From IMG/VR virus record IMGVR_UViG_3300045988_045310, positions 1 through 60,248 of that record: a stretch of DNA of 60,248 nt; one strand, 5' to 3'. Under the pieces are notes generated by a model, which saw nothing but the letters and a program-made list of their open reading frames with translations, made no database searches and was not told where the DNA came from. This document shows positions 13,970 to 15,576 of this stretch, one piece after another. Position 1 is the first letter of the stretch; each line of letters opens with the position of its first letter. The translations under genes were made by a program, and so were the position numbers. The stretch is from a virus.

Positions 13970-14287
13970 TTTATTTTTGCTTCTAATCTCCGCCCATCGG
14001 ATATCACTACTTCTGTAAATGGCAAGTTAATTGCTCCTGACTATAAATCTGCTGTAGCCATACAATCTAATTACACTTGTATGACTAATGGATATGTAAT
14101 TGGAACAATACAGGGTGCAGTGAATGGCTGGGCATCTATCCGATCATCCAAGAATGCAAATTATTTCTTGGCATTATGTACATCATCAGAAAATCCTATA
14201 GCGGTATGTATTCCATTTGCATCAGGAGACTCCGTTATATTTGGATCGAGTGGTACATATAATCTCGCATTTGCATCGGCTAAATAA
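13970..14287 (+). other. silent alternative tail-fibre C-terminal cassette: no start or RBS of its own, opposite strand to the expressed fibre gene
   Basis: frame open from 13970 and reads ...TSVNGKLIAPDYKSAVAIQSNYTCMTNGYVIG...ASAK*; shares VNGKL and the SN.YT...GY pattern with the expressed C-terminus. Confidence 0.65.
14014..14029. repeat. left arm of the 16-bp perfect inverted repeat TGTAAATGGCAAGTTA (putative inversion crossover site)
   Basis: exact reverse complement of 14572-14587; encodes VNGKL in the same codon phase in both copies. Confidence 0.8.
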
Positions 14288-14292
14288 TAATT

Positions 14293-15576
14293 CTAGCTTA
14301 TTGGATAGAATGCAGCTCCACCGTTTTGTGAAATCATATATACATGCATACCTTTTTTAACATAAATACTGTTTGTTGCAAATCTATCTGTTTGCCAATC
14401 AGCAGACAAGTAGAATGTTGGTGAATCATTATTTTTACCTTCAATAGCGACCATAATGGTTAAAAGAGTGGAGTTGGCTCTTGCTTGAATATATCCATCG
14501 CTTGGTAATGTATATTTATTTGATTGTGTATACGAGCTTAGATCTATTGGCATACCTAAACTATTTTTGTCTAACTTGCCATTTACATTACTAATCGCAC
14601 CTGTGACAGTTCCGTCACCGATTGATGAAATATCAGTTTTCCCTAAAAACGTAATTAACGTCTTGATGTTCTTTATCGCAAGGCTAACCTTGCCGATAAT
14701 TCCGCTGAGTTTCTCTCCTGTGGTCGGCTGTGCAAGTTCGGCAGGCTCGGTGAATGTTACGGTGGTGTTGGAAGCATCACCTGTCTTTTTGAGATAATCA
14801 GTCAAGTCAATGTTGGCTAATTTTTGGTCGGTAGTAGTCTTGTCATAGTAATTAGTTAAATTGTCAACATCTTTGGTGATATATCCAGCGTCATTCTCTA
14901 ATTCACTAACTTTTGTAGGTATACCTCCTGTTTGCTGTTTTGCCTGTTCCATATAATACTTTGCGTTATCGGTATCTTCTCCTTCTCTTGTTCCTGTTCC
15001 ACCTACGGCATAAGATTCAGCCAATACAGATTTTGCATTTGCGGATTGCGCATAAGCAGATGCATTTGCGGATTCTACTCTAATATCTGCTAAATAATTA
15101 GGCTGCAGCATATCGTCTGTTACTGATCCTGTTTTTATCGAAAAAGAATAAGTCTTATTCTTTCCAGTACCAGTCACGGATACAGCTATAGTTGCAGAAT
15201 CTTCAAATGTCAACACCGGAATCATAGAACCAATATTAGCCTTAAACTGTGTTCCATCTTCCGTAGTCATGGTAATGATTCCGTCATCAGACATGGAAAA
15301 GCCGACAGGAATTTTTTCAATGTTAAGGTCAAAAATAATTTTTTCACCGTTGTATTTTGTAATAGTAATAACACCGGTTGTTTCGTCCATAGTCCAATCA
15401 GCAATGTTTCCGTTTATTGCAGACTTGTCTACTTTTAAGGCATCCTGTGATATGATACGGTTGTCCAACGCATCAATGGCAGAATCCATTTTATTAAGAT
15501 TTATTTCATCAATGTCTGTGTTTTCACTGGGGTAATCTTCCCAGTTAATTCTGGTATAAACCTTATTCATTGCCAT
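14293..15576 (-). CDS. tail fibre / receptor-binding protein
   Basis: 427 aa; N-terminal VYTRINWEDYPSENTDIDEINLNKMD is typical of phage fibre N-termini; last gene of the late operon. Confidence 0.7.
   Translation of the reverse strand: MAMNKVYTRINWEDYPSENTDIDEINLNKMDSAIDALDNRIISQDALKVDKSAINGNIADWTMDETTGVITITKYNGEKIIFDLNIEKIPVGFSMSDDGIITMTTEDGTQFKANIGSMIPVLTFEDSATIAVSVTGTGKNKTYSFSIKTGSVTDDMLQPNYLADIRVESANASAYAQSANAKSVLAESYAVGGTGTREGEDTDNAKYYMEQAKQQTGGIPTKVSELENDAGYITKDVDNLTNYYDKTTTDQKLANIDLTDYLKKTGDASNTTVTFTEPAELAQPTTGEKLSGIIGKVSLAIKNIKTLITFLGKTDISSIGDGTVTGAISNVNGKLDKNSLGMPIDLSSYTQSNKYTLPSDGYIQARANSTLLTIMVAIEGKNNDSPTFYLSADWQTDRFATNSIYVKKGMHVYMISQNGGAAFYPIS
14572..14587. repeat. right arm of the 16-bp inverted repeat, inside the tail fibre gene
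   Basis: TAACTTGCCATTTACA is the revcomp of 14014-14029; 92 codons upstream of the fibre stop. Confidence 0.8.

Follow-up and report, generated by a model that had tools for sequence, protein, structure and literature searches.

What exchanges the tip of a phage tail fiber when two alternative tips lie head to head between inverted repeats and no invertase gene is found beside them? This question is raised by the tail fiber locus of IMG/VR virus record IMGVR_UViG_3300045988_045310, of which positions 1 to 60,248 were analyzed (this whole stretch of 60,248 nucleotides is referred to below as the window). The locus contains a 574-bp segment that carries the end of the fiber gene together with a silent alternative to it. 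Taken as a whole, and with moderate confidence, we consider this segment to be a programmed inversion switch (a 'mini-shufflon') for the fiber tip, with a recombinase that would act in trans. The parts of this reading differ in strength. Inversion by a recombinase is very likely, judging from comparisons with related phages; that the enzyme is encoded by the host or otherwise in trans, rather than being the phage integrase, is put at slightly short of an even chance.

Architecture of the Fiber Tip Segment

The features of the segment and of its immediate surroundings are as follows (ORF, open reading frame; aa, amino acids).

14014..14587, no strand: putative invertible segment, 574 bp, with two convergent tip cassettes between two inverted sites
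14293..15576, minus strand: tail fiber/receptor-binding protein gene, an ORF of 427 aa, with codons 1-335 forming a constant shaft that ends in V-N-G-K-L
14293..14571, minus strand: tip A cassette, 92 codons and a stop, expressed in the present orientation
Codons 336-427 of the fiber (DKNSLG...FYPIS), minus strand: tip A, belonging to tip family C10
14030..14287, plus strand: silent tip B cassette, 85 codons and a stop (IAPDYKS...AFASAK), without a start codon
14288-14292: spacer of 5 bp between the convergent stops
14572..14587, minus strand: expressed-side recombination site, the 16-mer TGTAAATGGCAAGTTA; core at 14572-14585, predicted exchange region (positions 7-12, TGGCAA) at 14576-14581
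14014..14029, plus strand: silent-side recombination site, the 16-mer TGTAAATGGCAAGTTA; core at 14016-14029, predicted exchange region at 14020-14025
14003..14013, plus strand: 11 conserved nucleotides flanking the silent site, ATCACTACTTC, with AT[CG]A[CT]TNCTTC as the consensus of the family
13933-13960, both strands: bidirectional intrinsic terminator, just outside the silent-side site

The fiber gene and a plus-strand frame, which stays open from 13970 until its stop at 14285-14287 and lacks a start codon ahead of the repeat, run head-on with their stops 5 bp apart. The two copies of TGTAAATGGCAAGTTA are 100% complementary and both encode V-N-G-K-L in identical phase. When 14014-14587 was flipped in silico, a 420-aa fiber ending in ...AFASAK was obtained, in which codons 1-335 are joined in frame to the 85-codon tip B, so that 92 codons are swapped for 85. 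The convergent frames, the perfect repeat, the common codon phase and the in-frame swap had all been proposed in an earlier note made from the sequence alone, and they agreed with the ORFs, coordinates and translations obtained here.

No further copy of TGTAAATGGCAAGTTA was found in the window, even with up to two mismatches allowed, and none of 100 shuffled sequences contained two or more matches to it. Perfect inverted repeats of at least 16 bp within 3 kb number three in the window, against 0.08 expected from first-order Markov simulations (150 runs, with a maximum of one in any run). A scan for promoter-like sites found seven against 11.0 expected in shuffled sequences, a number not above chance, and no significant site of this kind was found for the silent tip B cassette. 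The terminator at 13933-13960 also ends the convergent repressor gene and, since it sits outside the segment, the fiber transcript would end there in either orientation.

Sequence matches to the fiber were found in none of Pfam, NCBIfam or PDB. A search of GenBank phage proteins matched only Roseburia phage Jekyll, in which a protein adjoining the tail spike gene is 41% identical to fiber residues 3-335; Jekyll is without the cassette, and a search of GenBank phage DNA gave no match to the window. An AlphaFold2 model of the fiber, built from a 20-sequence alignment, had a mean predicted local distance difference test score of 36.6, with the tip at 53-68 and comprising six beta strands, and was too poor for a fold search. 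The pattern SN.YT...GY, which the earlier note had thought to be loosely shared by the two tips, did not hold up, the likeness of tip A to tip B being not significant either by BLASTP (E = 0.067 over 13 residues) or by hhalign (probability of 0.1%).

Relatives of the Window Fiber

A scan of IMG/VR with the fiber gave 164 relatives, of which the best 80 were kept (group 1; L and P numbers, such as L001 and P0009, are labels of relatives' loci). Many of these match fiber residues 1-335 and diverge just past V-N-G-K-L, and others match beyond residue 335 and carry related tips. Both sites are reached in 70 of the 80 loci, and all 70 share one layout, in which the shaft is followed by a site and by tip X and, after a few bases, by tip Y in inverted orientation and the second site. 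The group 1 tips form 40 clusters at 60% identity. Six tip pairs were seen in both orientations (14:6, 1:4, 3:2, 3:1, 3:1, and 3:2), and in L009/L011 and L017/L026 the segments between the sites are identical at 599 of 599 positions once flipped, with flanks that are 93-99% identical. The shared two-cassette layout, the pairs found in both orientations and the complete identity of the flipped segments bear out the suggestion of the earlier note that this is an invertible, Mu G-like cassette for swapping tips.

The silent cassette is not a decayed remnant, because L006, L008, L027, and P0009/L304 express tip B, with differences of 1-2 residues in ~85 aa, and the reading of the plus-strand frame as an alternative tip was in this way upheld. 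The shaft of P0009/L304 is near-identical to that of the window and has its rare AISNVNGKL signature. It could still be supposed that the family once switched and that the window copy is a frozen relic which no longer flips. The tip A/tip B pair has been seen in one orientation only (in the window, L001 and L299), and locked relatives do exist, namely the T04/T05 loci, whose silent site has degenerated and which have a stub of 13 aa. Against this, neither window site has a mismatch, the reading frame of the silent cassette is uninterrupted, and tip B lies only 1-2 residues from expressed copies; a frozen state of the window copy is considered distinctly unlikely.

Two variant layouts were also observed among these loci. 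In the locked variants L029, L031, L032, L039, and L041, the degenerate silent site TGTAAATGGCAATTTT is followed by the 13-aa stub. At L064 (6277-6867) there are three cassettes, the middle one of which lies behind a degenerate site in direct orientation, GCTAATTGGCAAGTTA.

A Second Fiber Family and Multiple Inversions

When the 16-mer was sought in other contexts (with a non-A/C base in front, in viral contigs), 19 loci were found, which is about the number expected by chance, and four of these exposed a second fiber family (group 2). Its fiber of 244 aa (...DAKAVADxYTE-LNGKL-tip) is unrelated to that of the window and carries the site GT-TAAATGGCAAGTTA. At least 226 relatives of this family are present in IMG/VR, mostly on contigs of ~38 kb, with two or four sites per locus; in the four-site loci a second convergent cassette pair follows the holin and lysin genes. 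With both families pooled, the tips form 60 clusters at 50% identity, and 25 of the 60, including those of tips A and B, occur on both shafts; family C10, to which tip A belongs, is accordingly also present on the second fiber. The tip families are mostly unrelated to one another, only one of 435 cluster pairs having reached an hhalign probability of 90%. In all, the system extends to more than 390 IMG/VR contigs and to 3,197 proteins in a large protein set, with cassettes of 85-120 codons. The window proteins shared with most group 2 loci are only the fiber, the tips and tail-module proteins, other matches being scattered over 1-4 loci each.

Inversions in group 2 also involve larger stretches. 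In L256 at least 1.7 kb, lysis genes included, runs opposite to its counterpart in L255 with 99.9% identity, and the L256 contig ends inside this stretch; in L262 the entire 2.4-kb lysis module, bounded by the second and third sites, has likewise been turned around relative to L247, also at 99.9% identity. Both are pairs of near-identical genomes.

Contigs of both groups tend to break at the sites. Ten of the 80 group 1 contigs end at a site or within 140 bp of one, and about nine group 2 contigs end no more than ~330 bp past the expressed site; random breaks would place well under 1% of contigs near sites. These breaks fit mixed populations at the switch, and they do not separate inversion from mixtures of strains.

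The four-cassette loci (L186 at 3196-7360, L178, L184, L225, and others) have one invertible pair directly after the fiber gene and a second, silent pair ~2.2 kb downstream, beyond the genes of the holin and the GH25 lysin; terminators abut the sites of this second pair.

The Recombination Site and the Point of Exchange

A comparison of 304 complete sites from both fiber families identified a common 14-bp core, TAAATGGCAAGTTA, which encodes (V/L)-N-G-K-L at the end of the shaft. Positions 3, 4, 7, 9, 11, 12, 14, 15, and 16 of the 16-mer are invariant in all 304 sites, and positions 5 and 10 vary in only one or two of them. Among these positions are four synonymous third-codon positions, and the shaft codons just upstream do vary synonymously. 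Selection therefore acts on the DNA sequence of the site itself.

The remaining variants allowed the exchange to be located. Those at positions 1, 2, and 6 track the outer flank, with a normalized mutual information (MI/H) of 0.60-0.69 against 0.11-0.15 when permuted, and the G/T variant at position 13 tracks the tip (0.66 against 0.23 permuted); position 8 is ambiguous, with 11 cases. Because positions 1, 2, and 6 go with the flank and position 13 goes with the tip, this pattern of variants places strand exchange within positions 7-12, TGGCAA. The L255/L256 inversion gives the same picture from a single recent event, in which the joint lies exactly in the core and the variant at position 6 stays with the outer flank, as predicted.

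This event also bears on whether the segment could flip by general or short-homology recombination between the 16-bp repeats, through host RecA or the phage RecT (3557..4306). The window phage does encode RecT and a metallo-beta-lactamase-fold protein, and any mechanism requiring identity would keep the repeat conserved. However, identity at the sites covers only 14-16 bp with sharp edges and is never extended, no exchange reaches beyond the central 6 bp, and the parental sites of L255/L256 share just the 9 bp AACTTGCCA and the 3 bp TTA. Neither RecA nor RecT works efficiently on homology nearly as short as 14-16 bp, and exchange at 9 bp of identity strongly favors a site-specific enzyme over RecA- or RecT-type recombination. 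Flipping by homology is thus regarded as very unlikely.

About its center the core reads as an imperfect palindrome (TAAaTgG|CaAgTTA, 5 of 7 pairs matching), which is weak evidence alone. The motif TGTAAA resembles a gix half-site, but in a different register. A resemblance to the XerD arm of Xer/dif sites was rejected, since with respect to the mapped exchange TGTAAA has the wrong direction.

The 11-nt flank of the silent site is a further conserved element, kept both in the second fiber family and in three classes of flank that are otherwise unlike one another. Read outward it is GAAGTAGTGAT in the window, GAAGTAGTSAT in group 1 (that is, GAAGTAGT(C/G)AT), and GAAGTAAATCA or GTGTAGTAGATCA in group 2. 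The 8-mer AGTAGTCA occurs exactly at this flank in 14 loci and is matched at 7 of 8 positions in the window. Reservoir sites of the second cassette pair of group 2 are without the flank, yet they recombine.

From these observations the following mechanism is proposed. A conservative site-specific recombinase would exchange strands inside TGGCAA of the two inverted TAAATGGCAAGTTA cores, and the resulting inversion would replace tip A (92 aa) by tip B (85 aa) in frame, with the shared terminator outside the segment serving both states. The recombinase would be supplied in trans, most likely from the Lachnospiraceae host or from a co-resident element.

Candidate Recombinases in and Around the Switch

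The inventory of recombinases comes from a Pfam scan of 40 window ORFs, a set that takes in nearly every ORF of 140 aa or longer lying outside the structural module; 20 of them were scanned a second time, ten with NCBIfam and ten with PHROGs. The recombination proteins found were a tyrosine integrase, two IS110 transposases of the insertion sequence (IS) copies IS-A and IS-B, and RecT only. These and the gene beside the switch are located as follows.

50209..51429: tyrosine integrase, identified by domain scans, 36 kb from the segment
5490..6857: IS-A, IS110 transposase, between a 285-aa gene adjoining RecT and the gene for a 647-aa AAA-domain ATPase
16280..17497: IS-B, IS110 transposase, between a 637-aa tail gene and the fiber operon, 1.7 kb from the segment
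3557..4306: RecT annealing protein, identified by domain scans
12995..13927: CI-type repressor beside the switch, with a helix-turn-helix domain and a PHROG 4 match across residues 51-299

No Resolvase-domain protein was present among the 40 ORFs, and a six-frame phmmer search of the window with an approximate Hin sequence and a large serine recombinase returned nothing at E <= 10. The earlier note had stated that no serine invertase lies beside the segment or elsewhere in the window, and this was confirmed by both approaches; its list of recombinases, comprising the integrase and the two IS110 enzymes only, was correct for these three and is extended by the RecT annealing protein. In group 2, phmmer searches with Int, a large serine recombinase and Hin found nothing within 10 kb on either side of the fibers.

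The genes that adjoin the switch differ between loci, and therefore no conserved recombinase adjoins it. In 61 group 1 loci the neighbor is the CI-type repressor, and in the others it is a lysin with a 450-aa large serine integrase (five loci), an IS transposase or a GH25 lysin. The large serine integrase subgroup comprises 20 contigs of ~40 kb in all.

At L001 (7500-8852), and also at L019, L025, L030, and L031, a gene resembling peptidoglycan-binding lysins is located downstream of the silent site, and the gene of the 450-aa large serine recombinase begins ~0.9 kb from the site. This protein is probably the integrase of these L001-type phages of ~40 kb.

The same scans bear on two further candidates. 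Piv is a DEDD invertase, and the earlier note had raised the IS110-family DEDD enzymes of the window as its possible counterparts. Both IS copies are indeed bona fide IS110 transposases and IS-B is close to the segment. This lead did not survive the comparison with relatives. IS-B is absent within 5 kb on either side in all 80 group 1 loci, which still show both orientations, and from L299, which has the same fiber and tip pair; IS-A is absent at the same position in L303. The IS ends showed no meaningful match to the site, the only 9-mer in common, at 6993, being located in a phage gene outside IS-A, and an Rfam search at the IS elements found nothing. On this distribution both copies are private insertions, and since they are absent from relatives the Piv-like lead is removed; flipping by either enzyme is extremely improbable and close to refuted. 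A diversity-generating retroelement was likewise rejected as the source of tip variation, there being no reverse-transcriptase domain among the 40 ORFs scanned against Pfam, and the tips being unrelated sequences rather than point variants.

The Phage Integrase, Its Attachment Site and the Host

There remains the phage tyrosine integrase, which might double as the invertase if recruited by the arm-type-like motif at the silent site. No other site-specific recombinase of the window is conserved, and the integrase is 97-100% identical in 62 related contigs among the matches listed; its phage attachment site (attP) was located as follows.

About 50020-50210: attP, with the core GGGGTTCGAGCCCCCTTGCTTCCA, which resembles a tRNA 3' end, and (A/T)AGTAGTCAA repeats at 50023, 50035, 50169, 50179, and 50198

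These attP repeats, of the arm type, resemble the outward-read flank of the silent site. The 8-mer AGTAGTCA is at the exact flank position in its 14 loci against a background of ~0.015 per kb, and three of the four near-matches to the arm-type 10-mer outside attP fall within 1.6 kb of the segment. Against such a role, the attP core shows no resemblance to the fiber site. The same fiber-site core occurs in the ~40-kb phages that bear a large serine integrase instead, and in the ~38-kb group 2 phages; neither kind of contig was found among the listed contigs with an integrase of at least 62% identity. Sites without the arm-like flank recombine too, as with the second and third sites (s2 x s3) of L255/L256, and lambda-type integrases are not built with an arm-type site 2-4 bp from the crossover. 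A second function of the integrase as the invertase is considered unlikely.

By the arrangement of attP and of integrated relatives, this protein is a true integrase. The integrated relatives diverge from the window at the attP core, 116-123 bp past the integrase stop, into host DNA that contains a terminator followed by malQ, and the window is therefore an excised or circular phage genome. The bacterial attachment site (attB) is taken to be a tRNA gene located upstream of malQ. The MalQ of the host flank is closest to named proteins of Lachnospiraceae metagenome-assembled genomes, at 78% identity, which identifies the host at family level only.

The attP and integrase gene are bracketed by a perfect 17-bp inverted repeat, GGAATCTTTGCAAAAAA, at 49989-50005 and 51345-51361, one arm of which lies in the N-terminal coding region of the integrase. 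It was found in 62 of the 62 listed loci with an integrase of at least 97% identity, with both arms in 31 and one arm in 31 (integrated or cut), and it is absent from the group with a 62%-identical integrase, among the matches listed.

Proposed Supply of the Recombinase in Trans

With these candidates weighed, the preferred reading is that of a recombinase supplied in trans, which is inferred because three backbones and two unrelated shafts use the same core without a shared recombinase having been detected. In its broadest form, TAAATGGCAAGTTA would be a 'public' joint, at which one recombinase of the host or of a co-resident element serves at least three unrelated backbones of Lachnospiraceae phages and two different shafts, flips the tips and circulates the pool of ~60 tips. 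This form is put forward tentatively, and we would sooner doubt than assert it.

Several considerations weigh against the switch as proposed. The evidence is all comparative, drawn from differences between contigs and not from a single sample or population of this phage. Action in trans is an argument from absence, and in group 2 it draws on the ~20 kb inspected of each ~38-kb genome; the figures for integrase and fiber contigs are those among the matches listed. The resemblance of the silent-site flank to integrase arm-type repeats hints at a phage-encoded actor. Finally, a fiber-based scan of genome contigs gave three distant matches only and no close relative.

Comparison with Known Inversion Systems

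The systems Mu G, P1 C, e14 P, and p15B Min use the serine invertases Gin, Cin, Pin, and Min, respectively, and their inversion changes receptor specificity. The window resembles them in that the crossover site closes the constant N-terminal part of the fiber, inversion exchanges the C-terminal part, and the silent copy has neither start codon nor promoter. It differs from them in having no serine invertase adjacent or elsewhere in the scans, in conservation over 14-16 bp of the site, where gix-type sites have 26 bp with two 12-bp half-sites around a 2-bp crossover, in cassettes of only 85-92 codons with no second (U/U'-type) gene in the segment, and in its host, which is here a Firmicute (Lachnospiraceae). 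A Fis-dependent enhancer, as in these systems, would have no invertase gene to lie in here. In contrast to Piv/IS110 systems, no DEDD recombinase is conserved alongside the segment (within 5 kb, in 80 relatives).

The R64 shufflon has the tyrosine recombinase Rci at its edge. In R64 (pilV) and in BV01-like tail fiber shufflons, as here, a constant N-terminus is joined to alternative C-termini through a short repeat that is itself coding, and the group 2 relatives with four cassettes and inversions between different site pairs resemble shufflons further; the window itself has two cassettes only and not three or more. The recombinase of the BV01-like phage shufflon is also encoded at its edge (PMC13596623), and in Bifidobacterium prophages the Rin shufflon, with repeats of 11 bp, lies next to the gene of its tyrosine invertase (Mavrich et al., 2018; PMC6109161). 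Unlike R64, Rin, and the BV01-like system, no dedicated tyrosine recombinase flanks the window cassettes, the integrase being 36 kb away.

In the Bifidobacterium phages 689b-1/Bb423phi2 there is a second inversion of ~500 bp with an 8-bp repeat and no flanking recombinase, for which an invertase in trans has been proposed (PMC6109161). The Bifidobacterium systems and the present one share gut temperate phages and short asymmetric repeats at the constant/variable joint of a tail gene, and in 689b-1/Bb423phi2, as here, the 3' end of the tail gene is inverted at a short repeat without a flanking recombinase. By these shared features that inversion is the nearest precedent, with trans action proposed in both systems. 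It rests on two genomes and on genes of undefined function, whereas here there are hundreds of contigs, two shafts, three backbones and ~60 tips. A global invertase that acts in trans on promoters of the cell's own genes is known in Mpi of Bacteroides fragilis (PMC6109161, PMC9881135). One enzyme that could similarly serve many dispersed sites with a common core is what the present system would require. Tail fiber genes are among the reported targets of inversion, and recombinases are enriched as their neighbors (Milman et al., PMC9881135).

The function of swapping tips by inversion is already known, as in Mu G, P1 C, Min, R64, Rin, and BV01-like systems. What is new is the scale, the definition of a 14-bp core within which exchange has been mapped to 6 bp, and the fact that an enzyme in cis is consistently absent.

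Fiber tips set the host range of temperate gut phages, and a small, defined joint lets abundant uncultured phages of Lachnospiraceae alternate their tips, drawing on a library of ~60. Were the joint indeed public, a host enzyme would both flip the tips and let the tip pool circulate between phages. The enzyme, once found, would show phages outsourcing the switching of host range, and together with its site it would serve the engineering of phage tips. For metagenomics, it follows that contigs break at the sites and that differences between fiber 'strains' may be switch states rather than lineages.

Other Features of the Window

A second perfect 17-bp inverted repeat, TTGCAATTCCGGCACTT, occurs at 31886-31902 and 33337-33353, its arms 1.45 kb apart and one of them in the region of a 625-aa terminase-like gene; ~0.08 such repeats are expected per window. 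Seven phage tRNA genes (Met, Trp, Ser twice, Arg, Tyr, and Gln) are found on the minus strand at 36363-38036. An ORF of 291 aa (23533..24408), located just upstream of a 1151-aa putative tape-measure ORF, occupies the place that in relatives is held by a GH25 lysin bearing a peptidoglycan-binding domain. In those relatives a holin-family gene (PF16079) also occurs among the head-tail genes, which is an unusual spot for lysis functions.

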